NCBI GenBank assembly: GCA_017649855.1
Contig: JAGCGA010000032.1
Coordinates: 50,230 to 114,229, forward strand
Reading direction: 5' to 3'
DNA: 64,000 nucleotides
From: Bacteroidales bacterium
GTDB lineage: Bacteria; Bacteroidota; Bacteroidia; Bacteroidales; WCHB1-69
The notes under the pieces are model-generated. The model worked only from the letters and a program-made list of their open reading frames with translations, was not told where the DNA came from and ran no database searches. Positions 970 to 56,510 of the stretch are shown here, one piece after another (position 1 is the first letter of the stretch; each line of letters begins with the position of its first letter). The position numbers and the translations under genes were made by a program.

Positions 970-2634
970 TTATTTATATAGGAATCGTTTGATACTCTTC
1001 TTGGGTGTCTTGTCAAATTCGTCTTTCTGAAGCTCGATTTTGGAGATCTGACTGTATTTGGGCAACAGGTTGTTGATTTTTTGCAGGTTTTCTTTCATGA
1101 GTGCCACAATGCGGGAGTCGAACTCCAGGTTGCCGTCTTTGGCATAGTCGGGGAACACCAAGGCGACCAGTTTACCTTCACGTTCCACCACGACTGACTC
1201 GACCACACCCTCCATGTTGTTGAGCTTGTCTTCAATCTCTTCCGGATAGATGTTCTGGCCGGAGGCACCCAGGATCATGTTCTTGTTTCTTCCTTTGATG
1301 AAGATGTTATTGTTCTTGTCGATGAGGCCGAGGTCTCCGGTGCGCAGCCAACCGTCTTCCGTGAAGGCAGCCTTCGTGGCCTCTTCATTCTTGTAGTAGC
1401 CCATCATGACGTGCTCGCCACGGATGAGGATCTCACCCACCTCGCGGTAGGGGTCTGCCGAGTCGATCCGGATCTCATTGTTGGGCAGGATATGACCGCT
1501 TGAACGTGGCACGAAGTCTTTGATGTGACAACCGCCAATCAGAGGGCCGCATTCGGTCATGCCGTAACCCACCACCAGCGGGAAGCCGACATTCAGCAGG
1601 TTGCGCTCTACATCCTCGTTGAGGGCGGCGCCGCCCACCATGAAGTACTTCAACTCGCCGCCGAAGGCCTTCATCAACTTGTTCTTGATGACCTTCTTGA
1701 TGACTCGGTTGAAGAGGGGCACATACATGATGCTCTTGATGACCTTCTTGTCGAGTACGGGCGCCAGACTGCGTTTGTAGATTTTCTCGATGACCAGCGG
1801 GACCGTCACCACCTCGTAGGGATGCACCTCGGCGAAGGCTTTCATCAGCAGGGTAGGGGTGGGGGTCTTGGTCAGGAAGTAGATGTGGCATCCATTGGCC
1901 AGCGGATACAGGAACTCGGCCAATTGTCCGTACATGTGCGCCAAGGGAAGCATGGAGACCACCTTCCAGCCCGGTTTGTTGGGCAGGAATTTCAGTCCGG
2001 CCTCGATGTTGGAGGAGAGGCTTCGATAGGAGAGCATCACCCCTTTGGGCGCTCCCATGGACCCCGAGGTGTAGTTGATCATCAGCTGATTGTCAGGGTT
2101 GCGCACTGGGAAGCAGAACTGCTCGCAGTCCACCACCGGAATCTCAAAGTCCTCCAGCGATATGGACTCGGTGGCAGAAAAGAGGGTGGAGAAGTCGGTC
2201 AGCGAGATGATGGTCTGCAGCTGAGGGAGCATCTCCCGGATGGGGTCGCCGTCCACCAAGATGTTCTTGTAGGCTTCCTCTTCCAAAATGCCCTTCAAGA
2301 CGTAGGGGCCGATGAAGAGGGCTTTGGAGTCGGAGTGTTTGAGCAACTCCTTGATGTCGTCGCCATGAAAGTCTTGCAGGATGGAGACGATGATGCCGCC
2401 GTAGGAGGCGATGGCGAGGTAGGCGACAGCCCAGTTGGCGCAGTTTCGGCCGCAGATGGCAATCTTGTCGCCCGGCTGGATGCCGATGGTGCGGAAATAG
2501 TTGCCGATGCGCTGGACCTGTGCCGCCACGTCGCCGAAGGTGTAGCTCACATCACCGTTATAGTCGGTGAGTGCCGGCTCGTTCCATCGTGCAGGGAAGA
2601 CTTCGTTGAAATATTCAAAAAAGTGTTTGGTCAT
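970..2634 (-). CDS. AMP-dependent synthetase/ligase (long-chain fatty acid-CoA ligase type)
   Basis: 554 aa. Motifs seen: YTSGSMGAPKGV (AMP-binding), GYGMTECGP and WLRTGDLG. Confidence 0.85.
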   Translation of the reverse strand: MTKHFFEYFNEVFPARWNEPALTDYNGDVSYTFGDVAAQVQRIGNYFRTIGIQPGDKIAICGRNCANWAVAYLAIASYGGIIVSILQDFHGDDIKELLKHSDSKALFIGPYVLKGILEEEAYKNILVDGDPIREMLPQLQTIISLTDFSTLFSATESISLEDFEIPVVDCEQFCFPVRNPDNQLMINYTSGSMGAPKGVMLSYRSLSSNIEAGLKFLPNKPGWKVVSMLPLAHMYGQLAEFLYPLANGCHIYFLTKTPTPTLLMKAFAEVHPYEVVTVPLVIEKIYKRSLAPVLDKKVIKSIMYVPLFNRVIKKVIKNKLMKAFGGELKYFMVGGAALNEDVERNLLNVGFPLVVGYGMTECGPLIGGCHIKDFVPRSSGHILPNNEIRIDSADPYREVGEILIRGEHVMMGYYKNEEATKAAFTEDGWLRTGDLGLIDKNNNIFIKGRNKNMILGASGQNIYPEEIEDKLNNMEGVVESVVVEREGKLVALVFPDYAKDGNLEFDSRIVALMKENLQKINNLLPKYSQISKIELQKDEFDKTPKKSIKRFLYK

Positions 2635-2648
2635 TGTCGTGTTAAGGG

Positions 2649-3449
2649 TTACATAGGTTTGATTTTGCGGGCCAGCTTGGCGCAGAGTCCCGGGAAGAAT
2701 CGCTTGATGTGAGCCATGATGAGCTCGCCGCTGCCCACCAGCTTCTCCCTCTTTTCCTTGGCGATGGCCTTGAAGATGATGCGGGAGGCCTTCTCGGCGG
2801 TGATGCCGCCCGCCTGACCCGCGTCCATCTTGCCGTGCTGCCGTCCGTCTTTCTCTAACGAGTTGACGGATATGTTGGTCTGCACGCGCCCCGGCGTGAG
2901 GATGGTCACCCGGATGTTGTTCTTGAAGTTCTCCGCCGCGATGGTCTCGAAGAAGCCGTACAACGCGTGCTTGGCCGAGGAGTAGGCGCAGCGCAGCGGG
3001 AACCCGAAGAGCCCGGCAATGCTGGTGGTCACCGCCAACTGGCCGCCGCCCTGCTCAATCATCTTGGGCAAAACGGCTTTTGTCAGGATGACCGGCGCGT
3101 AGAAGTCGATGTCCATCACCTTGCGGATGACGGCCATGTCGGTCTCCACGGTGGTGCCGCGCTGGCTGATGCCGGCGTTGTTGTAGAACAGGTCGATGCG
3201 CCCATAGGCGTTGAGGGCGTCGTCGGCGAGTTGCGGCAAAGCATCCGTCTGCGACAGGTCGAAGGGCAGGCAGGTCACCGCCTTAGCGCCTAACTTCAGG
3301 CACTCCTCGCGCACCTGCTCCAACAGGTCGGGCTCCAACGCGGTGAGGATGAGCCGTGCACCAGCCTCGGCAAAGCGGAAGGCCACCTCCTTGCCCATGC
3401 CGGAGGAGGTGCCCGTAATCCAAACTACTTGGTCGGTATAGTCGTTCAT
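2649..3449 (-). CDS. short-chain dehydrogenase/reductase (SDR); candidate 3-keto (dehydrocapnine-type) reductase
   Basis: 266 aa. Motifs seen: TGTSSGMG (TGxxxGxG), NNAG and YSSAK (YxxxK). The role is inferred from neighbours only. Confidence 0.8.
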   Translation of the reverse strand: MNDYTDQVVWITGTSSGMGKEVAFRFAEAGARLILTALEPDLLEQVREECLKLGAKAVTCLPFDLSQTDALPQLADDALNAYGRIDLFYNNAGISQRGTTVETDMAVIRKVMDIDFYAPVILTKAVLPKMIEQGGGQLAVTTSIAGLFGFPLRCAYSSAKHALYGFFETIAAENFKNNIRVTILTPGRVQTNISVNSLEKDGRQHGKMDAGQAGGITAEKASRIIFKAIAKEKREKLVGSGELIMAHIKRFFPGLCAKLARKIKPM

Positions 3450-3536
3450 ATATTAATAGTGATTCAAAAGTGGTTGTATAATCGTCTATGGGGAGCATAA
3501 GTTTGCTTGCACAACAAAACCATTCGTCCCGTCAAA

Positions 3537-3575
3537 ACTAATAACTGTTAGCTAACAACTGCTAACGGTTAACTA
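3537..3575. repeat. GTTAR/CTAAC word tract abutting a stop codon
   Basis: The sequence is actaataactgttagctaacaactgctaacggttaactaag. It includes the 12-bp palindrome TGTTAGCTAACA (3546-3557) and GTTAAC. Confidence 0.85.
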
Positions 3576-4799
3576 AGCTTCGTCTATCATCTTCTTGAAG
3601 AAGGTGGCCCGTGCGGCTCCCTCGCCCGTGTTGAGGAGGACCAGTTCGCCATTGCGGATCTGTCCCTCTTCCAGGGCCTTGTAAAAGCCGGCGAAGCAGA
3701 CGATGGAGGCGGGTCCGAGGTAGATGCCGCGCTCGTCCTTGACAATCTTGCCGTAGTGTGCCAACTCGCTCTCCTTCACACGCAGGAAGGTGCCGCCGCT
3801 CTTGCGCACGATGGGTGCCACGATAGGGTACATGCCCGGGTTGCCGGCAGTGAGGATGGACACGAAGGTCTTGGGGTCTGCGATGATGGGGTAGTCCTTC
3901 TCATAACCTTCGGGGAATCCGGCCTCCACCGCTTTGGTCCAGGCCTGCACCATCGGGTCGCAGGTGTCTTGCTGGATCAGCAGCATGCGGGGCAGCTTGG
4001 TCTCCGGGAAGGTGGTCTGCAGATCACGGATGCCCTTGTCCAAGGCGATGGGACCCGTGCCACCCGCGACAGCCTGCATGTACACGTCGGGCATCTTGCC
4101 CAGCTGGCGCAAGTACTCGAACACCATGGTCTTCTTGGCTTCGACACGGATAGGATCGATGTTGCCCGTGGAGATGAGCACGTGGTTCTTTTCGTGGAAG
4201 TCGTTGGCCTCTTTCTTGGCGAATCCGTAGTTGCCGTCGCATACGATCACGGTCTGGCCGTAGGACTTGATGGCCTCCACGGTGTCCTCAATGGCATCGT
4301 GAGGCATGAAGACGGTGAACTTGATGCCGGCCTCGGCAAGATAGCGGGCGTAGGCGGTGGCCGTGTTGCCGGTCGAGGCTACACAGAACTCCTTCACACC
4401 GTTCTCCTTGAAGAGAGAGGCGGCCAAGGAGGCGGCAATGTCCTTGAAGGTGTTGCTGCCGCCGTTCAGGTCGTTGCGATAGACCATCACCTGGCAGTCG
4501 ATGCCGTATTTCTCTTTCGCTAACTTCTCCAAGAAATCCCACTCCTCGATGGGGATGGCTCCTTCGCCGAAGGAGACGATGTTCTTGGGGTCCATCACCG
4601 GCAGGAAGTCGAAATAATGGTAGAAGTTCTCGGGCTTGTGCTCCGGTTTGGTCAACTCCGTGATCTTGTGATAGTCTGCGGAATATACGACGTCAGCGCG
4701 CTTGCATCCGCATTTACACTGTTGGTTCTGAGAAAACCAAGTGGCAAAGTCGGGGATGACTTCGCCACATTGGGTACATTTCAGTTCGTATTTGTTCAT
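3573..4799 (-). CDS. PLP-dependent threonine-synthase-fold enzyme, cysteate synthase-like
   Basis: 408 aa. It has an N-terminal Cys cluster (CTQCGE...CKCGC) and an NTFKDIAAS PLP-lysine motif of fold-type II enzymes. Its size and context next to the alpha-oxoamine synthase also fit. Confidence 0.6.
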   Translation of the reverse strand: MNKYELKCTQCGEVIPDFATWFSQNQQCKCGCKRADVVYSADYHKITELTKPEHKPENFYHYFDFLPVMDPKNIVSFGEGAIPIEEWDFLEKLAKEKYGIDCQVMVYRNDLNGGSNTFKDIAASLAASLFKENGVKEFCVASTGNTATAYARYLAEAGIKFTVFMPHDAIEDTVEAIKSYGQTVIVCDGNYGFAKKEANDFHEKNHVLISTGNIDPIRVEAKKTMVFEYLRQLGKMPDVYMQAVAGGTGPIALDKGIRDLQTTFPETKLPRMLLIQQDTCDPMVQAWTKAVEAGFPEGYEKDYPIIADPKTFVSILTAGNPGMYPIVAPIVRKSGGTFLRVKESELAHYGKIVKDERGIYLGPASIVCFAGFYKALEEGQIRNGELVLLNTGEGAARATFFKKMIDEA

Positions 4800-7646: not shown

Positions 7647-8936
7647 TCAGTTCTTGGGATGCTGTTTAAAAAAAGTTTCAAGTTCTTCTAACGTAATTTG
7701 CCGTTCGATTATTGCAGAGGTTTGGTTGTCTATCAAGAAAATGACCGGTGTGGTCATGATGTCAAAATACTCGATGAAGTCGAGGTTGGCCTCGCCCATG
7801 GAGGTGCTCAGGTTGATCCAGTCCCATAGTTGGTGTTCGTCGGAGAAGATTTTCCATCGTTCGAAATCTTCGTTGACCTCCACGGCGAATACCTCGAAGT
7901 CGGCGATGGTGTCCATCCGTTGGTACATCTCGTGCAGTTGCGGGGTCATCACCTGGCAGTGGTCGCAGTCGGGATCCCAAAACCAGAGCACGGTGTAGCG
8001 GGTGTCGATGTCCTTGGTGGAGTGGGCCTTGCCTTCGATGTCATGGGAGACGAGCTCCGGAATCTTGGCGCCGGGGATGATCTTCCGGGCGCGATCCATC
8101 TTGCGCCACACCAGGCGGGCGCGGTCCTCCCGAATCCAGTCATGGCCGACATCGTCGTAAAGATGCACCAATAATGGATCGTAGTAGGGGTCTCTCAGGT
8201 CTTCTATGGTGGTGAAGATGAATTCGGTGAGGGAATTTAAGGTGGCGCAGTCGCAATGGCTCAGCACGGTGTCCACCACAGCCCATTTCTCTTCCAGGGA
8301 GACGTCGTAGTCGGACAGGTACTCGGCAATGGTTCGGAAGAGGTATGGGGAGACATGCAGCGAGTAGGCGCGATGCAGGTCGTAATAGCGCAGCCATTTT
8401 GAGAAGAAGGAGATGTCCACCGTCTGCTTGAGCTGGGAAAAGTAGAGAATGGCCTTGATGTGGTTGAAGTAGAAGTCGGGAGAGGTCTCCAAGGCCACCT
8501 CAAGATCCTGTGGGAAGACATGTCCGGTGTTCAGTTGCTGGATGAAGCGATGCAGTTCTACGGTGTTCTCCCCGTCCTTGTTTCCCAACACGGTGACACC
8601 CTCTTGGGCATTCGACGGCCAGATGAGAGTGAAGGTGCCTTCGTCGGAGATAAGATCGACAGGGCAGCGGAAGCGGTGGTCTTCGCTGACGATGGTGTAT
8701 ATGCCTTGGGGCACCCAGCGCCTTTTGCTTTTGAACTTGGCGGTGCCCTTCTTGATGACAGCGCTGTCGATGAGCTGGTAGGTGTCCAGATAAGTGCCCC
8801 GCAGGTAGGCTTTCCCCTCAAACGGGAGGTTCTTGACCGTGATGTTGTAGCGGGAGAACCCCTCGACACACTGGGCGTGCAGGGATCCCAACACGCCAAA
8901 GAGCAGGAGGCCGGTGATCAATAGGATCTTTTTCAT
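7647..8936 (-). CDS. thioredoxin-fold (TlpA-like) secreted protein, paralog of the previous gene
   Basis: The start is moved to MKKILLITGLLLFGVLGSLHAQ (ATG 8934-8936), which overlaps the glmM stop as ATGA. It has a WFWDPDCDHCQ CxxC motif. Confidence 0.75.
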   Translation of the reverse strand: MKKILLITGLLLFGVLGSLHAQCVEGFSRYNITVKNLPFEGKAYLRGTYLDTYQLIDSAVIKKGTAKFKSKRRWVPQGIYTIVSEDHRFRCPVDLISDEGTFTLIWPSNAQEGVTVLGNKDGENTVELHRFIQQLNTGHVFPQDLEVALETSPDFYFNHIKAILYFSQLKQTVDISFFSKWLRYYDLHRAYSLHVSPYLFRTIAEYLSDYDVSLEEKWAVVDTVLSHCDCATLNSLTEFIFTTIEDLRDPYYDPLLVHLYDDVGHDWIREDRARLVWRKMDRARKIIPGAKIPELVSHDIEGKAHSTKDIDTRYTVLWFWDPDCDHCQVMTPQLHEMYQRMDTIADFEVFAVEVNEDFERWKIFSDEHQLWDWINLSTSMGEANLDFIEYFDIMTTPVIFLIDNQTSAIIERQITLEELETFFKQHPKN

Positions 8937-10327
8937 TGGGTAATCTTCTTGATGAAAGTCATGATTTCGGAAGCCAAGGCCTCGGCTTCGGCTTCGGTGG
9001 CGGCTTCCGTGTAGATGCGGATGATGGGCTCGGTGTTGGAACTGCGGATGTGCGCCCAACTCTTGGCGAAGTCGATCTTCACCCCGTCGATGCGGGAGAC
9101 GGACTCGTCGGCGTAGTGCTGTGCGACAGCGTCCAGGATGCTGGGCACCGACATGGTGGGGTCGAGCTCTATCTTGTTCTTGGAGATGTGATAGTCAGGG
9201 TATTTCCGGCGCAGCTCCGAGCACTTGCATCTCTCGACGGCCAGATGCGACAGGAACAGGGCGATGCCCACGAGCGCGTCGCGGCCGTAGTGCAGGGCAG
9301 GGTAGATGACGCCTCCATTGCCTTCGCCGCCGATGATGGCGCCCGTCTCTTTCATCTTCTCCACCACATTGACCTCACCCACGGCGGCGGCGCTGTAGCT
9401 GACGCCATGCCATCCGCTCACGTCACGCAACGCGCGCGAGGAGGAGAGGTTGGAGACGGTGTTGCCCTTCTCGTGCTTCAGGATGTAGTCGGCAACGGCC
9501 ACGAGGGTGTACTCCTCGCCGAACATGGTGCCGTCTTCCTGCAGGATGGCTAAGCGGTCTACGTCGGGATCCACCACGAAGCCCACATCGAAACGACCCT
9601 CTTGACGCATCACCCCTGCGATGCCGGTCAGGTTCTCAGGAATGGGCTCCGGCGTGTGCGCGAAGATACCGTTGGCCTCGCCGTTGAGAACGGTCACGTC
9701 GGTGACACCCAGCTGCTCCAATAGCGGGGGCAAGGCTAATGCGCCCGTGGAGTTGATGGTGTCCAATACAACTCGGAAGTTCGCTTTTGCTATGGCATCC
9801 CTGTTGACCAAAGGAAGCGCCAAGATGGCGTCGATATGATGCTGGATGGTGTCGTCAACTTTTTGATATTTACCCAGATGGGAGATGTCGGCATAGCCCA
9901 CATGGTCTAACTGTGCCGCAAGCTCCAAGAGGTGCCGGCCTTCAGCGGCGGAGATGAACTCGCCCTTCGCATTGAGCAGTTTGAGCGCATTCCACTGCAT
10001 CGGGTTGTGGCTGGCGGTGATGATGATGCCGCCGTCGGCTCCGTATTGCGTCACGGCCATCTCGGTGGTCGGGGTGGTGCTCAGACCGGTGTCTATGACA
10101 TCCACGCCCATGCTTTGCAGGGTGCCGCATACTAACGTGCTGACCATCTGGCCGGATACGCGGGCGTCGCGCCCCACGACCATCGTCAGTTTCTCTTTCT
10201 TCGTCTGCTCTTTAATCAGGATGGAAAAGGCGGTGGTCAGTTCCATGATGTCAGCGGGCGTGAGGTTGTCCCCGCATCGGCCCCCGATGGTGCCGCGAAT
10301 GCCTGAAATGGATTTGATGAGTGCCAT
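8933..10327 (-). CDS. glmM: phosphoglucosamine mutase
   Basis: 464 aa. Motifs seen: SGIRGTIGG and the TASHNP phosphoserine loop. Length is typical of alpha-D-phosphohexomutases. Confidence 0.85.
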   Translation of the reverse strand: MALIKSISGIRGTIGGRCGDNLTPADIMELTTAFSILIKEQTKKEKLTMVVGRDARVSGQMVSTLVCGTLQSMGVDVIDTGLSTTPTTEMAVTQYGADGGIIITASHNPMQWNALKLLNAKGEFISAAEGRHLLELAAQLDHVGYADISHLGKYQKVDDTIQHHIDAILALPLVNRDAIAKANFRVVLDTINSTGALALPPLLEQLGVTDVTVLNGEANGIFAHTPEPIPENLTGIAGVMRQEGRFDVGFVVDPDVDRLAILQEDGTMFGEEYTLVAVADYILKHEKGNTVSNLSSSRALRDVSGWHGVSYSAAAVGEVNVVEKMKETGAIIGGEGNGGVIYPALHYGRDALVGIALFLSHLAVERCKCSELRRKYPDYHISKNKIELDPTMSVPSILDAVAQHYADESVSRIDGVKIDFAKSWAHIRSSNTEPIIRIYTEAATEAEAEALASEIMTFIKKITQ

Positions 10328-10428
10328 ACAACTATTTTATATAATAGGGCGCAAAAATATAAAAATATCGCTTATCTTGAAAGGTTGCGAGGGTGAAAAA
10401 ACAAGGGACTGGAATTCAAGAAAAAATG

Positions 10429-37101: not shown

Positions 37102-37214
37102 CCCCTACGGGGCTGCTCAAGGAATAACTATCATCTATTATCTATTAGCTATTATCTATCATCTGTTATTCTACCCAGCTCTTGCCCCTGCGGGGCTGCT
37201 CAAGGAATAACTAT
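37102..37214. repeat. two copies of a 30-bp module CCCCT(A/G)CGGGGCTGCTCAAGGAATAACTAT, 83 bp apart
   Basis: Copies at 37102-37131 and 37185-37214 match at 29 of 30 positions. Each carries a CCCC-N3-GGGG hairpin and is followed by a period-7/8 word tract. Confidence 0.9.
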
Positions 37215-37251
37215 TAACTATTAACTTTTAACTCTTAACTCTAACTCCCCC

Positions 37252-52298: not shown

Positions 52299-53539
52299 AT
52301 CATGGATGTTTTGTTGATGGATTTTTTGAGCATGTGGGCAGGCAGGATGGCAGTGAGGACGTTGATCAGCAAGATGGTGATCAAGATGAGCAGGAGATCG
52401 GTAAGGTGCATCTCGACCGGATAGTAGGGGATGGCATAGTAGCCGTCGCCACCGCCCAGCTTGATGAGGTGGAAGGTCTGTTGCAGCCAGCAGACGATCA
52501 CGCCGAGGAGGATGCCTAAGATGCCGCCGATGAGGGATACGGCCATGCCTTCGTACAGGAAGATACGCTGGATCAGCGATGGCGATGCCCCCAGACTGTA
52601 GAGGATGGCATTGTCGCGCTGCTTCTCCAGCACGAGCATGCCGATGGCCCCGATGATGTTGAAGGCAGCCACAAAGAGGATGAAGGCCAGTATGATGTAG
52701 GTGACCAGCTTCTCCGACTGCATGGTCTTGAAGAGGGTCTCCTCCTGCTGTTGCTGATTCTTGACGACAAAAGAGGGCCCGACGATGGTCTCTATCTCAT
52801 GTTGTAGTTTTTTGACATCGGCAGACGGATTCGTGTAGATGGCCATGGAGGTCGCCTGATCCTGATAATGCATCAGGTTGCGGGCGAACTCGATGGGACA
52901 GACAAGATAGTTCTGGTCGTGGTCGGTGTTGGAGGCGAAGACGCCGGTGGGGTAGAGGTAGTCGGTATTGAAGGCGCTGGCGGGGTCGGCGAGGTTCTTT
53001 TTGGTGCGCTTGGGGTAATAGACCTTCAGCAGGTCGTAGCTCTTCAGGTTGACGAGCAGCTTGCCCGCCGCCACGGTGCCGAGGTTGGCGCAGGCCTGCT
53101 CCCCGTAGTAGGGGCGCGCGTCCCCGTCCACGAGCACGTCGGCATACACCTGCATCGTGCGCGAGCCCGTGTCCACGCCGATCAACTGCAGCAGCTCCTG
53201 CCGGTCTTGGTAGGTCACCAAGGCCAAGTCGCTGACCATCTCGTCCACCTCGGTGACCCCATCGAGGTGCTGGAGCTTCTCCATGGGAAACTCTGCCGTC
53301 TCAAATGACTTGCCCTCCCGGAGCGTGATCATGAAGTCGGGGTTGTTGTCGTTGAACCAGCCGCTGATAGTCTCCTCCAGTCCGTTGAAGACGGAGAGGA
53401 CGATGACCAATGCCGCCGTGCACACCATGATGCCCACCATCGAGACGATGGAGATGACATTGATGATGTTGTGTTTCTTGCGGGACACAACATATCGCTT
53501 GGCGATGAAAAAGGCGGTCTGACGGCTGGCAGATTTCAC
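52295..53539 (-). CDS. FtsX-like ABC transporter permease (LolC/E-like)
   Basis: 414 aa. TM1, a large periplasmic loop and three C-terminal TM helices match the MacB/FtsX topology. Confidence 0.75.
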   Translation of the reverse strand: MKSASRQTAFFIAKRYVVSRKKHNIINVISIVSMVGIMVCTAALVIVLSVFNGLEETISGWFNDNNPDFMITLREGKSFETAEFPMEKLQHLDGVTEVDEMVSDLALVTYQDRQELLQLIGVDTGSRTMQVYADVLVDGDARPYYGEQACANLGTVAAGKLLVNLKSYDLLKVYYPKRTKKNLADPASAFNTDYLYPTGVFASNTDHDQNYLVCPIEFARNLMHYQDQATSMAIYTNPSADVKKLQHEIETIVGPSFVVKNQQQQEETLFKTMQSEKLVTYIILAFILFVAAFNIIGAIGMLVLEKQRDNAILYSLGASPSLIQRIFLYEGMAVSLIGGILGILLGVIVCWLQQTFHLIKLGGGDGYYAIPYYPVEMHLTDLLLILITILLINVLTAILPAHMLKKSINKTSMI

Positions 53540-53541
53540 GG

Positions 53542-53877
53542 CTATTGTTTCAGCAGTTCGTCAATGTGTTCGATATAGTCCAAGGTGTCGTCCAGGAAGA
53601 ACTCCAGCTGAGGCACTACGCGCAACTGGTTGCGGATGCGCTGCCCCAAGCGGAAACGGATGTCCTTGGTGTTGGCGCGCACCGCAGCCACGATGGCCTC
53701 TTTGTCAGGCGCCATATAGACGCTCAAATAGGCCCTCGCAATGGAAAGGTCAGACGTGATGGTCGTCTTCGTCACCGTGATGAGGCAGTTGTAAATGTTT
53801 CGACCGTCGGCTACAAAGATGTTGGCCAACTCTTTTTGCAATAATGCTGCTATCTTATTCTGTCTTGTCGTATTCAT
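53542..53877 (-). CDS. rbfA: ribosome-binding factor A
   Basis: The start is moved to MNTTRQNKIAALLQKELANIF (ATG 53875-53877), giving 111 aa. The upstream part of the 221-aa ORF is non-coding-like. Confidence 0.85.
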   Translation of the reverse strand: MNTTRQNKIAALLQKELANIFVADGRNIYNCLITVTKTTITSDLSIARAYLSVYMAPDKEAIVAAVRANTKDIRFRLGQRIRNQLRVVPQLEFFLDDTLDYIEHIDELLKQ

Positions 53878-53908
53878 ACTAAAATATCCTATCGTGATAA
53901 TCAGGCGG

Positions 53909-53916
53909 CAAAGATA
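53909..53916 (-). promoter_or_regulatory. -7 type promoter box TATCTTTG
   Basis: Exact TAnnTTTG on the minus strand, 32 nt upstream of the rbfA ATG. Confidence 0.5.
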
Positions 53917-53940
53917 CGCATTTTGTTGGAAATAGCGATT

Positions 53941-53990
53941 AGGAGTTGTTGGGTGGGAGGTGAGGGAGTTAGAAGTTAGGCAAAGTGAGA
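53941..53990. repeat. word tract with GGGAGTTAG head (plus sense)
   Basis: The sequence is aggagttgttgggtgggaggtgagggagttagaagttaggcaaagtgaga. It overlaps the end of the RT fragment. Confidence 0.75.
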
Positions 53991-54331
53991 CTAATTGTTT
54001 TGAAGCCAACGATACTTGGCTTGTCACGATGCCATCCCGAATTGCCCCGGAGAGGCGTGATCTCAATAACCCCAGACAAATGGTGAACGATGTGATCGCG
54101 AGAATCGGCAGCGAATACTTCTCTTTTCTTCGGGCCGGTAATGATGAAGCAAGTAGAAGATTTTGGAGAGTAGGTTCGTGTGTAGAGTTCATTACACAAC
54201 GTATCAAAATTATTCCTCAAGTCGGTTTCAAACCTTTGCTGATAAAGTTTGAATCGTTTGTGGCGGCGAGCATCAAGCCAAGCCTGACTCAGGCGGCCGT
54301 TGTCCTCTTGGGTGTGTGGGGGCGGAACAAG
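53969..54331 (-). pseudogene. reverse transcriptase N-terminal fragment (DGR/retron-type RT remnant)
   Basis: The frame reads ...GRLSQAWLDARRHKRFKLYQQRFETDLRNNFDTLCNELYTRTYSPKSSTCFIITGPKKREVFAADSRDHIVHHL... This matches the xNLxxAxxxxxxxKR / Y.P / PKKRE.F.A..RD.IVHH pattern of RT domains 0-2. There is no ATG or GTG start. Similarity ends after HHL, and motifs 3-7 (YxDD) are absent. Confidence 0.6.
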
Positions 54332-54333
54332 GG

Positions 54334-55065
54334 TTAGTGCTGACTGGCACGCACCGCACGCACAGGATATCCCTCATAGCGGTAGCTGGCGGAGGCGTAC
54401 ATGCCCTCGCGACCCGAGCTGAATCCGAAGGCCCACGCGAGCCCCGGGTAGTCCAGGTACAGCGCACTCGACCAGTAGAAGCCGAACTCACCCGTGCCAT
54501 CGATACTCGGGCCGAAGGGGGCGCCGGCAGCGGGCAGGAAGAGGCTCTTACCATTGGATCCGGTCAGAAGGTGGCCGTTAACCCCATTTAGAACAATCCA
54601 AATGCTGGTAGTGTAGTCTATCAACTCTTCCCACTCGTTTTTAGTCGGTGTGCGGGCTCCACCGCCAAGGTTAGCCGTGGCGGCATCGTCAGAGGCCTGA
54701 AGGATGGTCTGGTTGTCTGTAAAGCCGTTAAGACCGTATGAAGCCTTATTGCAGTATTTAGTGAGCTTACCGTCGTCATTGCCGAATGCGTAGGTGCTCC
54801 AGCTATAGACATTCTTCGGGGTGGTCTCGCCCCAAGCGTAATAATTACCATAGTCCTCGAGGGCGCTGGCACCCACATTCCGATCTGCCCACAAGAGACC
54901 GCTCGGCAACCCGAGGTCAACCCAAACAACAGAAGACGAGTTGCCGCCATTATTGCCACCATTGTTGCCGCCATTGTTGTCGCCATTGTTGTCTTCTCTG
55001 TCGCAGGACTGTAGCCCCACACCTAACAGAATTGCAACCATAAAAAATAAAACTGATCTTTTCAT
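54334..55065 (-). CDS. lipoprotein with lectin-like FISUMP/DUF1566-type domain (DGR-target-like C-terminus)
   Basis: 243 aa with a lipobox (GLQSC) and an (NNGG)n linker. Motifs seen: GLPSGLLWADRNVGA, YYAWGE, PTKNEWEEL, LPAAG and GFYWSS. It ends YEGYPVRAVRASQH. Confidence 0.7.
   Translation of the reverse strand: MKRSVLFFMVAILLGVGLQSCDREDNNGDNNGGNNGGNNGGNSSSVVWVDLGLPSGLLWADRNVGASALEDYGNYYAWGETTPKNVYSWSTYAFGNDDGKLTKYCNKASYGLNGFTDNQTILQASDDAATANLGGGARTPTKNEWEELIDYTTSIWIVLNGVNGHLLTGSNGKSLFLPAAGAPFGPSIDGTGEFGFYWSSALYLDYPGLAWAFGFSSGREGMYASASYRYEGYPVRAVRASQH
54943..54990. repeat. 4 x 12-bp coding tandem repeat (GCCNCCATTRTT), encoding the NNGG linker
   Basis: Read directly: gccgccattatt gccaccattgtt gccgccattgtt gtcgccattgtt. 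Confidence 0.9.
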
Positions 55066-55260
55066 CGCAAAATATGTCCGAGGACCTCGGTTTTCTCTTA
55101 ATCATGACGTTCTCATACCCTGCGAGGTCCTTTGAACAGGATATGGGAAAACATCGCTGCAAATATATAAATATTTTACAAATGTACAAATATTTTATTG
55201 ATTATATTGTTTATTTATTAATAAAGTGAAATTTTTTGTGAGAATAACCGAAGTTTCGTT

Positions 55261-55268
55261 TATTTTTG
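55261..55268 (+). promoter_or_regulatory. orphan -7 type promoter box TATTTTTG
   Basis: Exact TAnnTTTG with no annotated gene downstream. A GC-rich ~100-nt segment follows, then the repeat tracts. Confidence 0.35.
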
Positions 55269-55370
55269 CAGGCATGTCGGAGGTGTGCGGGGGACGACAC
55301 GATGGGCGAGCGGCCGTTTGCGGATAACGCGTGCAGATGGGCGGAATCCCCGTGAATGGCGGGGGCGATT

Positions 55371-55620
55371 GGGAGTTAGATAATAGTTAATAGTTATGGG
55401 TAGTTCGGGGCTAATGGCTAATAGCAAACGGCCAAAGTTCAAAGTTCAATGTCAAGGTTAGGAGGTTAAAAGGTTAATAGGTTAAGCGGTTAGAAGGTTA
55501 ACGGGTTAATGGGTTAATGGGTTCAAAGTCAAAGTTCAAAGTTCAATCTCAAGGTCATGGTTTTGACGGCCAACAGCTAACAGCTAACGGCTAACAGCTA
55601 ACAGCCAAAGTTCAAAGTTT
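55371..55620. repeat. composite array of short-period word repeats
   Basis: The array starts with the head GGGAGTTAG at 55371. AGGTTAnn repeats 8 times (period 8) at 55455-55518. TAACAGC repeats 5 times (period 7) at 55571-55605. CAAAGTY tracts start at 55433, 55523 and 55606. A 26-bp direct repeat CAAAGTTCAAAGTTCAAT(G/C)TCAAGGT occurs at 55433 and 55530. Confidence 0.9.
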
Positions 55621-55625
55621 TTTTA

Positions 55626-55633
55626 TATTTTTG
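55626..55633 (+). promoter_or_regulatory. -7 type promoter box TATTTTTG
   Basis: Exact TAnnTTTG upstream of the SPFH gene. Confidence 0.45.
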
Positions 55634-55712
55634 CCGATTCTTCGATTATTCCGTGCATGATGATGGGGGAATTCAAAATCATATGGAAATCTATAACAAA
55701 AAAAATCATATC

Positions 55713-56510
55713 ATGGCATACGCACAACAATCTACCAGCAAATTTTTCAAATGGGTGCGCTACTCCTTTTTGGGCTTGGTGGTGCTCATCACCATCTTCA
55801 GCTCATTCTATACGGTGAAGTCCACCGAGCGTGGCGTGCTCTCCACCTTCGGCAAGATCCAGGACAAGGCGGTCGGCGACGGCTTGCACATCAAGATCCC
55901 CTTCATCCAGCATGTACAGAAGGTCAACGTGCAACAGAAGAAGTTCGATGGCACCGAGAACTCCTACACGCGAGACGTGCAGACATCCGAGGTCACCTAC
56001 ACCATCAACTACGACCTGGTGACCGACAATGTCAGCTTGCTGATCAAGAAGGTGGGCAATGACTACCACACGCGCATCGTGGAACCCTACATCCGCAGTG
56101 CCGTCAAGAGCAGCTTCGGTAACTTCAACGCCACCCAGATTGTGGAGAACCGCGACAAGGTGCGGGCCCAGATCGAGACGAAGCTGCGCGAGACCCTCGA
56201 CAGCCGGTATTTCACCAATATCCATTTCCAGCTGGTCAACATCGACTTTGACGACCAGTTCGAGACAGCCATCAAGGAAAAACAGGTGGCCGAGCAGAAC
56301 GCCCTGAAGGCGAAGAATGTGACCATCCAGATCGAGGAGCAGGCCAAGCAGACCAAAATCAAGGCTGAAGCCGAGGCGGAAGCCATCCGCATCAAGGCCA
56401 ACGCTTTGGAGAAGAATCCCAAGTTGGTGGAATATGAGGCGGTGCAGAAGTGGGACGGCAAGCTGCCCGAATACACGGGCGGCGCGGTGCCGTTTATCAA
56501 TATCAAGTAA
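55713..56510 (+). CDS. SPFH/band 7 (prohibitin family) membrane protein
   Basis: I chose the start at MAYAQQSTSKFFKW (ATG 55713, A-rich upstream). The track's GTG at 55653 and the ATG at 55683 are alternatives. It has a TM helix, then an SPFH core and an A/E/K-rich coiled coil. Confidence 0.75.
   Translation: MAYAQQSTSKFFKWVRYSFLGLVVLITIFSSFYTVKSTERGVLSTFGKIQDKAVGDGLHIKIPFIQHVQKVNVQQKKFDGTENSYTRDVQTSEVTYTINYDLVTDNVSLLIKKVGNDYHTRIVEPYIRSAVKSSFGNFNATQIVENRDKVRAQIETKLRETLDSRYFTNIHFQLVNIDFDDQFETAIKEKQVAEQNALKAKNVTIQIEEQAKQTKIKAEAEAEAIRIKANALEKNPKLVEYEAVQKWDGKLPEYTGGAVPFINIK

Follow-up and report, generated by a model that had tools for sequence, protein, structure and literature searches.

The lipoprotein gene and the adjoining reverse transcriptase (RT) fragment described here are, to judge from comparison with related sequences, very probably the remnant of a chromosomal Bacteroidales diversity-generating retroelement (DGR) whose original layout was a target gene carrying the variable region (VR), post-VR hairpins, a MutS-like accessory gene, a template repeat (TR) and an RT. 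The lipoprotein target gene is intact; the element's TR, accessory gene and targeting hairpin, together with about 83% of its RT, were lost in two deletions, and the once-hypervariable C-terminal tip of the lipoprotein is now a fixed allele. Incomplete or inactive DGR loci have been described previously, the same type of decay recurs across the clade and is common and known, and the locus reveals no new mechanism. The initial annotation had read the locus as a DGR left without its TR and with little of its RT, and this is borne out: full-length relatives of the RT fragment are DGR RTs with adenine-biased TR/VR pairs, and the window, by which is meant the whole 64-kb stretch of DNA analysed, has no TR, no accessory gene and no RT motifs 3-7.

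In the working element, as reconstructed from the relatives, the TR RNA would have been copied by the RT with errors at adenines, and the cDNA would then have replaced the last ~70 codons of a DUF1566/FISUMP-type surface lipoprotein. Inactivation, as the alignments show, came about through a first deletion that took everything from the long post-VR hairpin to the start of the RT, accessory gene and TR included, and a second that took all RT sequence beyond motif 1/2. The leftover RT codons are untranslatable debris that is starting to collect changes at invariant residues, and the lipoprotein gene has persisted intact, with its last diversified VR sequence becoming a fixed allele.

Table 1. 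Features of the locus in window coordinates, followed by the map of the intact cassette L090 in its own coordinates
Feature	Position	Strand	Basis
rbfA, housekeeping gene outside the element, marking its downstream limit	53545..53877	-	identical to a gene annotated as Pfam RBFA in L088 and L091
180 nt from the RT remnant to the region upstream of rbfA, in the low-divergence island	53897..54076	-	among L001-L091, similar only to the same locus in L008, L088 and L091
Deletion 2 junction, RT homology ending after ...HIVHHL	54076..54077	-	alignment, blastx coordinates
RT remnant, 72 codons, residues about 38-110 of a P0002/L090-type DGR RT (domain 0 to motif 1/2)	54077..54292	-	blastx
Deletion 1 junction, post-VR flank joined to about RT codon 37	54293..54297	-	alignment to relatives
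Stub of the original post-VR flank with degraded proximal hairpin	54297..54333	-	matches post-VR flanks, not post-TR sequence, of L090, L089, L001 and L033 (TAACCCTTGTTCCG...CAACGG)
Intact lipoprotein gene, 243 aa, former DGR variable protein	54334..55065	-	ORF call
Former VR, last 70 codons of the lipoprotein, now fixed, about 210 nt	54337..54546	-	aligns to VR and TR of both L090 and L001
TATATTTG box, candidate promoter element, about 95 nt upstream of the lipoprotein start	55160..55167	-	read from sequence
L090 VR	1823-2027		
L090 accessory gene	2160-2699		
L090 TR	2843-3047		
L090 RT	2987-4273		

The target had been described at the outset as a 243-aa lipoprotein of the lectin-fold FISUMP/DUF1566 type, and both the gene and the motifs quoted for it (LLWAD, YYAWGE, EWEEL, LPAAG, FYWSS and GYPVRAVRASQH) are present where that description placed them. 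In the protein, a signal peptide with lipobox Cys21 is followed by a G/N-rich linker and by a probable DUF1566/Lcl_C/FISUMP-type domain; the lipobox, MKRSVLFFMVAILLGVGLQSC, is read directly in the translation, and in 49 homologues S20 and C21 hardly vary. Profile searches, which had been suggested as a check, gave matches that lie under both cut-offs, with Pfam Lcl_C (PF07603) reaching 26.9 bits (E=6.5e-6) against a gathering cut-off of 34.9 and FISUMP (TIGR02145) reaching 15.5 bits (E=0.021) against 41.65. There are more than 7,500 homologues, many of which carry a precomputed PF07603 assignment and one of which is named DUF1566. The two best BFVD matches of the AF2 model of the lipoprotein (pLDDT 75.8) are phage FISUMP-domain proteins (E=2.8e-4 and 9e-3, probability 1.00, TM 0.31-0.34). 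A fold search of the PDB with the same model returned nothing significant, the matches to snake-venom C-type-lectin-like proteins being weak (E about 1), so that this search gave no confirmation of a C-type lectin fold against solved structures, and sequence and profile searches of the PDB gave only a spurious signal-peptide match to GH71.

That this family serves DGRs as a variable protein with the VR at the extreme C-terminus, as was also claimed, holds for the relatives, whose targets are homologues of the window lipoprotein with such a VR; the target of the intact DGR L090 has 71% amino acid identity to it. Most close homologues in metagenomes have no RT within 5 kb, so that belonging to the family is not by itself a sign of former association with a DGR. 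At the window locus, past linkage is concluded because RT debris adjoins the lipoprotein gene.

This debris lies on the same strand, in an open frame (54373..53969, minus strand) that reads ...AWLDARRHKR...GPKKREVFAADSRDHIVHH... and that, in agreement with the initial reading of a fragment with no start codon and no catalytic motifs, has no ATG, GTG or TTG at its 5' end and contains neither IGNLTSQ nor YxDD; the full length of a DGR RT is ~400-430 residues. About 100 codons had been assigned to the RT, and the similarity itself is upheld by blastx (71% identity to full-length relatives, E=5e-28), but the RT-derived part amounts to 72 codons, and the last 35 codons of the open frame have no matches. 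Nor does the fragment follow directly on the lipoprotein stop, as had been supposed, for about 40 nt of original post-VR flank intervene. The proposed search against RT profiles gave a divided result, in that the fragment matches the PADLOC RT model (E=7e-5), with a weak LmuA match, and receives no score from Pfam RVT_1 because too little of the domain remains. Among 32 positions with conservation of at least 90%, the fragment differs at 5, and these changes include F to S and R to H at residues that are invariant in 70 full-length RTs. No further RT debris is present in 53897-54076 or elsewhere in the window, and blastx detected no second RT in the 64 kb.

The origin of the fragment is established by its relatives. 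A genome scan with the fragment yielded 80 listed loci and 89 further matches, and the loci analysed are these 80 together with L001 (81 in all). Among the 80 listed relatives nearly all have full RTs bearing YxDD, and the relatives carry IGNLTSQ, a motif typical of DGR RTs; a full-length relative that contains it passes Pfam RVT_1 with 58 bits against a cut-off of 29.6. TR/VR pairs whose mismatches fall overwhelmingly at TR adenines (37/37, 29/29 and 20/20, for example) are found in 58 of the 81 loci, and the layout of these 58 is target(VR), MutS-like accessory gene, TR, RT. In the closest intact cassette, L090, 25 of 25 TR mismatches are at A, and the accessory gene encodes a 179-aa protein that matches MutS_I weakly (E=0.012).

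These cassettes are also what decides against a derivation of the fragment from a defence-type RT (retron, Drt or Abi), a hedge that the initial annotation had left standing, or from a group II intron, with the adjacency of the lipoprotein gene being coincidental. Such a derivation, which has practically no probability, could appeal to the fact that the sole model match of the fragment is the generic PADLOC RT, apart from the weak LmuA match, and to partial sub-threshold matches of full-length relatives to group II, retron St85 and Drt2/3 models. However, the scores lie far under the curated cut-offs (111.6 against 300 bits, for example, and, for a full-length relative searched with NCBIfam, 48.9 against 235 for retron St85, 48.6 against 390 for Drt2 and 46.7 against 200 for Drt3a), and no NCBIfam retron, Drt or Abi cut-off is approached. 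Moreover, 58 relatives sit directly 3' of a TR whose mismatches to a VR are adenine-specific, the window lipoprotein is homologous to the targets of these cassettes, the relatives bear the DGR-type IGNLTSQ motif, and there is no effector gene or ncRNA near the fragment, an Rfam search of 53000-56000 being without a match. A defence RT was rejected because the relatives lie in TR/VR cassettes and score far under the family cut-offs.

The former VR was placed correctly at the C-terminus of the lipoprotein in the initial annotation, but its extent, given there as 54337-54480, is about 210 nt in the alignments. It retains an adenine-mutagenesis footprint relative to the TRs of the clade. Compared with the TR of L001, mismatches occur at 38 of 57 template-A positions (67%) and at 22 of 150 non-A positions (15%; Fisher p=1e-12), and the footprint is significant against seven heterologous TRs (p=1e-12 to 5e-6), although the test uses the TRs of relatives, not the window's own lost TR, and ligand-binding positions might vary fast without any DGR. 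At 8 of 22 AAY-aligned VR codons the third base differs from the L090 TR, and the VR contains a 6-nt insertion when compared with the TR and VR of any relative; both are compatible with drift after decay or with a divergent lost TR. The conserved 3' end of the VR (GTGCGTGCGGTGCGTGCCAGTCAGCACT) is intact and equals the 3' end of the L001 TR.

On either side of what is missing, both gene order and sequence follow those of an intact DGR from the same clade. Window positions 55176-54297 align to L090 1206-2060 with 80.7% nucleotide identity, and positions 54546-54076 align to L090 2843-3317 with 72%. Collinearity with L090 and L001 runs through the target and 31-40 nt of flank, resumes at the RT codons LADL|RQAY and ends at HHL. 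Deletion 1 begins about 40 nt past the stop codon of the VR, at the point that marks the start of the long hairpin in L090 and other relatives, and extends over about 1.0 kb in L090 coordinates, while deletion 2 accounts for at least 0.95 kb of missing RT coding sequence.

The identity of the ~40 nt after the stop bears directly on a different route to the same arrangement, in which homologous recombination between VR and TR would have collapsed the element and left the RT directly after a VR/TR hybrid, with no illegitimate junction. The VR and TR are an obvious substrate for this, being ~200-nt direct repeats with 80-90% identity, and the distance from the repeat end to AY.DARRHKR is about 50 nt in the window against 57 nt in the TR-to-RT segment of L001. 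Yet the ~40 nt match the post-VR flanks of L090, L089, L001 and L033 and not post-TR sequence, the window VR contains no Asn/AAC-rich stretch and no visible TR-derived part, and the stretch of the RT gene encoding about residues 21-36, located after the TR in the relatives, is missing. A collapse of this kind was rejected on the alignment of the post-VR flank and must be considered extremely improbable.

The window has no RT with an intact catalytic core (motif 4 [ILV]GxxxSQ and motif 5 YxDD), and in its 64 kb there is no TR paired with the VR with mismatches confined to template adenines, and no second or TR-like copy of the VR of any kind, which accords with the initial remark that there was no room for a TR. 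An accessory gene (Avd, MSL or similar) adjoining a TR is likewise absent from the 64 kb, the best tblastn match of the L090 MutS-like protein to the whole window having E=0.17, and the window contains no paralogue. There is also no target-site hairpin or cruciform 3' of the VR. The post-VR structure of the relatives comprises a small proximal hairpin and a bulged hairpin of ~25-35 bp, and 52 of the 57 loci with a TR/VR pair have strong structure there (z<-3); the post-VR DNA of the window is not predicted to fold stably (z=-1.2 and -0.8, against -6 to -8.6 in relatives).

For the phage DGR of BPP-1, whose target site consists of an IMH and a hairpin/cruciform, experiments have shown that the hairpin is needed for retrohoming (Guo et al. 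2011, PMC3240598). The relatives share with this site GC-rich inverted repeats about 10-110 nt after the VR; the predicted post-VR structures of the clade are larger, and in the window they are degraded or deleted. Given the degraded state of the proximal hairpin and the loss of the long one, the window VR is probably closed to further diversification, including by a DGR located elsewhere in that genome, if the BPP-1 requirement is extrapolated to Bacteroidales DGRs.

This loss weighs against a scenario in which only the cis machinery is dead and the lipoprotein is still a live remote target, its VR being diversified in trans by the RT and TR of a DGR outside the window. Since the genome is visible only as these 64 kb, a compatible TR and RT may exist elsewhere in it; incomplete DGR loci have been reported to be diversified in trans (bioRxiv 10.1101/2023.09.22.558884); the 3' end of the window VR is intact and identical to that of the L001 TR; and a strong post-stop hairpin is kept in 14 of 31 RT-less paralogue loci in metagenomes, as expected of remote targets. 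In the window, however, that hairpin is gone, the VR is base-for-base identical across independent assemblies of two lineages, and the third-base changes and 6-nt insertion relative to the TRs and VRs of all relatives do not fit ongoing templated replacement. As weak evidence, no other RT of the L008 genome is among the 80 loci listed (with 89 further matches). Diversification in trans is accordingly judged very unlikely.

Comparison across strains, another check proposed initially, found no intact version of the exact locus. Among the genome matches listed only L008 represents it, with the same remnant, and exact-protein look-ups found L088 and L091, both again with the same remnant. The metagenome scan contained no relative above 74% identity, and hence no intact allele at the rbfA locus was found. 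The relatives form a full decay series, from the intact L090 through an internal RT deletion (L001), loss of the TR (L067) and RT debris alone (the window and L161/162) to a clean orphan target (L089), and independent stages of decay are represented by L001, L067, L010, L071, L043, L099, L161/162, L110, L157 and L089.

Among known systems, the closest are the chromosomal DGRs of Bacteroidales and Bacteroides that pair an Msl accessory gene with targets of the DUF1566/Fib_succ_major type, known as "category d" or CLec2-VR (Wu et al. 2018, PMC5758913; bioRxiv 10.1101/2024.11.15.621889). They have the same target family, a short lipoprotein with a VR at its extreme C-terminus, and the same RT clade as the window remnant. 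L090 and L001 resemble these elements in their order of target, MutS_I-like 179-aa gene, TR and RT and in their adenine-only mismatches. According to Wu et al. 2018 (PMC5758913), DGRs with MSL also carry avd; in the relatives here, one accessory gene, of the MutS-like type, lies between VR and TR, and no avd was noticed. Unlike the Msl-type DGRs, the window has no TR, accessory gene, RT start or catalytic core, and its element therefore cannot function. The incomplete or inactive loci of Thiohalocapsa PB-PSB1 (bioRxiv 10.1101/2023.09.22.558884) likewise have no complete RT and/or TR and a target that is no longer diversifying, and they raise the same question of trans activity versus inactive remnant. 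There, however, the rearrangements are transposon-driven and some loci are rescued in trans, whereas the window shows two plain deletions whose junctions carry no mobile element, and the hairpin for target recognition is gone as well.

The neighbours of the locus are rbfA and an SPFH gene. Upstream of the lipoprotein gene, conservation with L001, L090 and L089 reaches to 55176. The TATATTTG box in this region, to which TATGTTTG corresponds in L001, is a candidate Bacteroidetes -7 promoter element; a scan for promoters and terminators gave nothing above chance. The 180 nt that separate the RT remnant from the rbfA upstream region show no similarity to L001-L091 beyond L008, L088 and L091, and no Rfam match. 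The initial expectation of a frozen target is supported by the invariance of the VR, which is identical in the window and L088 and in L008 and L091, representing two lineages and at least three assemblies. The VR and the RT debris are identical between these lineages, which are ~5% divergent in the flanks, and the island 53897-55096 contains 3 substitutions against about 60 expected (P about 3e-22).

The locus is a clean, well-mapped case of DGR death, with both junctions defined, the hairpin lost and the last VR allele fixed. For annotation, it indicates that DUF1566/FISUMP lipoproteins beside short RT-like open frames are best labelled as former DGR targets, and not as defence RTs or active DGRs. 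It is also conceivable, though rather unlikely, that the loss of the DGR was a "lock-in", in which deletion of the template, RT and target hairpin fixed one advantageous variant and the frozen cassette of ~1.2-1.5 kb then spread by homologous recombination between the ~5% divergent lineages. If this were true, DGR decay in rumen Bacteroidales would be a selected end to diversification, not neutral erosion.

The locus is very probably what decay has left of a chromosomal DGR, of a type already known from Bacteroidales, with a DUF1566/FISUMP target and a MutS-like accessory gene, in which the target is frozen but intact. The initial annotation described a lipoprotein followed by a start-less, RT-like frame, and this observation is real, since translation of the ORF recovers every motif that had been quoted, the frame is open, and the RT fragment is matched by the PADLOC RT model (E=7e-5). 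Of the profile comparisons that it proposed, those with the lipoprotein gave weak matches to Pfam Lcl_C/DUF1566 (E=6.5e-6, under the gathering score) and NCBIfam FISUMP (E=0.021), while Pfam RVT_1 does not match the fragment, which is too short. The segment is indeed RT-derived, but its length must be reduced from about 100 codons, its codons do not directly follow the stop but are separated from it by ~40 nt of non-RT sequence, and the VR is longer than the span of 54337-54480 first assigned to it.

Features of the decayed locus (window), of the closest intact DGR cassette (L090) and of post-VR hairpins in relatives
Locus	Feature	Position	Strand	Remarks
Window	Lipoprotein ORF	54334-55065	minus	Intact, 243 aa; lipoprotein signal peptide (…LLGVGLQSC); G/N-rich linker
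Window	VR	~54337-54546	minus	
Window	Start-less open frame	54373 to 53969	minus	Downstream of lipoprotein; reads …LSQAWLDARRHKRFKLYQQRFETDL…CFIITGPKKREVFAADSRDHIVHHL…
Window	RT-derived part of open frame	54292-54077	minus	72 codons only
L090	Target	1343-2029		
L090	VR	1823-2027		
L090	Accessory gene	2160-2699		
L090	TR	2843-3047		25/25 mismatches at A
L090	RT	2987-4273		RVT_1
L090	Long hairpin	2064-2133		
L001	Long hairpin	9081-9151		
L089	Long hairpin	1162-1231		

The lipoprotein has more than 7,500 homologues in a protein search, among them P0017 (71% amino acid identity), which is encoded in L090. An AlphaFold2 model built from an alignment of 49 homologues has a mean pLDDT of 75.8, with a core above 90, and in BFVD it best matches two proteins from phages, both with the ‘Fibrobacter succinogenes major paralogous domain’ (E=2.8e-4 and 9e-3, probability 1.00), so that the predicted structure supports the assignment to FISUMP/DUF1566 made initially; a PDB search with the same model gave no significant match, with weak snake-venom C-type-lectin-like matches at E ~1, and so did not confirm a C-type lectin fold. 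The proposed link of this family to DGRs is already documented, since Wu et al. 2018 (PMC5758913) class DUF1566/DUF823/Fib_succ_major proteins, frequently short lipoproteins, as the ‘category d’ targets found in 14% of DGRs, and in many of the 80 genome-scan loci described below a lipoprotein homologue also precedes the RT. The GNN linker is encoded by a 12-nt tandem repeat (GTTGCCGCCATT x4.3, window 54940-54991) that varies in length, with one extra unit in the related locus L008 and a scaffold gap there in L091.

The relatives of the RT fragment belong to DGRs. Used as a protein query, the fragment retrieved eight short proteins, one of which, P0002, starts with MNNNNRNNGFSVRAVRASQH, an Asn-rich copy of the lipoprotein C-terminus, and continues into RT sequence. 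Its contig, L001, encodes a 235-aa lipoprotein homologue (63% identical) and carries a 179-aa gene as well as a ~200-nt repeat of the lipoprotein 3' end, just upstream of the RT ORF and overlapping it; 31 of the 40 mismatches within this repeat pair fall on adenines of the downstream copy. For the 179-aa gene there is a weak hit to MutS_I (E=0.012), in keeping with both the ‘MSL’ class of accessory genes in Wu et al. 2018 (PMC5758913) and the Msl described from DGRs of Bacteroides (bioRxiv 10.1101/2024.11.15.621889). When one genome per species was scanned with an alignment of the RT fragments, at least 80 loci were obtained, nearly all with a full-length RT that contains YxDD and extends 355-426 aa past the match start. 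TR/VR pairs are found in 58 of the 81 loci analyzed (80 and L001), with mismatches overwhelmingly at TR adenines (37/37, 29/29 and 20/20, for example), and most loci that lack a pair merely lack upstream sequence. A representative full-length RT, which carries GLPIGNLTSQ and YVDD, passes Pfam RVT_1 (58 bits vs 29.6) and falls far under all NCBIfam group II, retron, Drt and Abi cut-offs. The alternative origin first suggested for the fragment, a defence-type RT, is rejected because the relatives have adenine-biased TR/VR pairs and their representative RT scores under all the NCBIfam defence cut-offs.

In the closest relatives (L001 10001-10513; L037; L090 2987-) the RT ORF begins at an ATG within the TR, and the first ~20 RT residues (MNNNNRNNGFSVRAVRASQH) are the translated TR 3' end. 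Chromosomes of Pseudomonas spp. (L080, L082, L083, L084, L086) carry DGRs in which the RT N-terminus shares 54% identity with the Bacteroidales fragment and the TR/VR pairs, of ~104 nt, have mismatches at adenines only, so the RT clade crosses phyla. Bacteroidales-type DGR RTs also occur in bins labelled as Acutalibacteraceae (L062), Rhodoferax (L073) and Mycobacteriaceae (L078), which are probably mis-binned MAG contigs rather than cases of transfer.

The VR of the window records past activity and present stasis. Aligned with the TR of its relative L001, it mismatches 38 of the 57 template adenines but just 22 of the 150 remaining positions (p=1e-12), and the adenine bias is seen against seven TRs. 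Comparison of the locus across strains, which had been suggested as a route to an intact version, returned the same remnant each time: in L008 (sheep-rumen MAG RGIG7025), which is collinear with the window and ~94-96% identical, in L091 of the L008 lineage, and in L088, which is identical to the window. Neither the VR nor the RT debris differs by a single base between the two lineages, in agreement with the proposal that the target is frozen.

The proposed loss of the TR and most of the RT is borne out by the mapping of two deletions against L090, and no TR-like copy, other RT, accessory gene or lipoprotein paralogue was found within the 64-kb window. Window 55176-54297, which takes in the gene, its candidate promoter region and the first 31 nt past the stop, aligns with L090 1206-2060 (80.7%), and window 54546-54076 aligns with L090 2843-3317, the TR and the RT 5' part. 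In multi-way alignments the ~40 nt past the window stop (TAACCCTTGTTCCG…GGACAACGG) correspond to the post-VR flank of L090, L089, L001 and L033, not to post-TR sequence, and this flank is fused directly to RT codons at the boundary between …LA(D)L and RQAY…, ~codon 37 in P0002 numbering. The RT homology stops abruptly past …HIVHHL at 54077, and for the 180 nt beyond (54076-53897) no match turned up among the loci compared. Given this junction and this end, two deletions account for the locus: the first, of ~1.0 kb in L090 coordinates, removed the long post-VR hairpin, accessory gene, TR and RT start, and the second, of at least 0.95 kb, the remainder of the RT. Homologous recombination between VR and TR is ruled out by the retained post-VR flank and by the absence of RT codons 21-36. 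The RT debris shows signs of loss of constraint, being off-consensus at 5 of 32 positions of at least 90% conservation, with F to S and R to H changes in FAADFRDRIVHH at residues that are invariant among 70 full-length RTs.

In relatives, two hairpins lie within ~110 nt of the VR, a small proximal one and a long, bulged one of ~25-35 bp; post-VR folding reaches z = -6 to -8.6 in the closest relatives and is below -3 in 52 of 57 loci with TR/VR, whereas the post-VR DNA of the window is unstructured (z -0.8 to -1.2). The start of the long hairpin in L090 is the exact start point of the first deletion. This hairpin is conserved 35-110 nt past the VR stop, with equivalents in L037, L033 and L024, and consists of a ~25-35-bp stem, a 6-nt TACCCA bulge, an inner 6-bp stem and a GGAG-type loop, the pairing being preserved although stem sequences vary among loci. 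It may be a target-recognition element of the DGR clade, a terminator, or both. Efficient retrohoming in phage BPP-1 needs a hairpin/cruciform past the VR (PMC3240598), and by analogy the VR of the window would probably resist diversification even by a DGR that acts in trans.

Comparison of the window with L008 shows 3 substitutions and a single 12-nt indel, in a repeat, at positions 53897-55096, where the ~5% divergence of the surrounding 15 kb (up to 10% just upstream) predicts ~60 differences (Poisson P ~3e-22). This deficit implies that the already-decayed cassette was recently exchanged by recombination between the lineages or swept through them, and selection on the frozen allele is possible. 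The island of low divergence spans window 53897-55400 and L008 ~8900-10400. Short-period (6-8 nt) degenerate AT-rich tandem repeats, such as AAGGTTAA, GTTCAAA, AACAGCT and GAATTAA, occur in many intergenic regions of these rumen Bacteroidales (window 55377-55605, 37102-37240 and 53940-53990; L001 8081-8126; past stop codons in L101, L102, L097, L106 and L136).

DGR decay is frequent in the clade, and other genomes hold independent decay stages of the one DGR type. in L001 an internal deletion leaves the RT as ORFs of 170 and 158 aa, and 9 of the TR/VR mismatches are not at A; in L067 the accessory gene is fused to RT residue ~60 and the TR is lost; L010, L043 and L071 have truncated RTs; RT pieces adjoin the target in L099 and L161/162, an RT C-terminal scrap being among the stages; L110 and L157 retain accessory-gene scraps; and L089 retains target and hairpin, with nothing else up to the next gene. 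When metagenomes were scanned with the lipoprotein as seed, the 80 closest loci (42-74% identity) almost all lacked an RT within 5 kb, and a strong post-stop hairpin is kept at about half of the RT-less loci (14/31), which may be either remote or former targets. The literature already describes DGR loci that are incomplete or inactive, as well as rescue in trans (bioRxiv 10.1101/2023.09.22.558884). The present locus is a dead example of an already known DGR type, and its main value lies in the precise map that it provides within a natural decay series.
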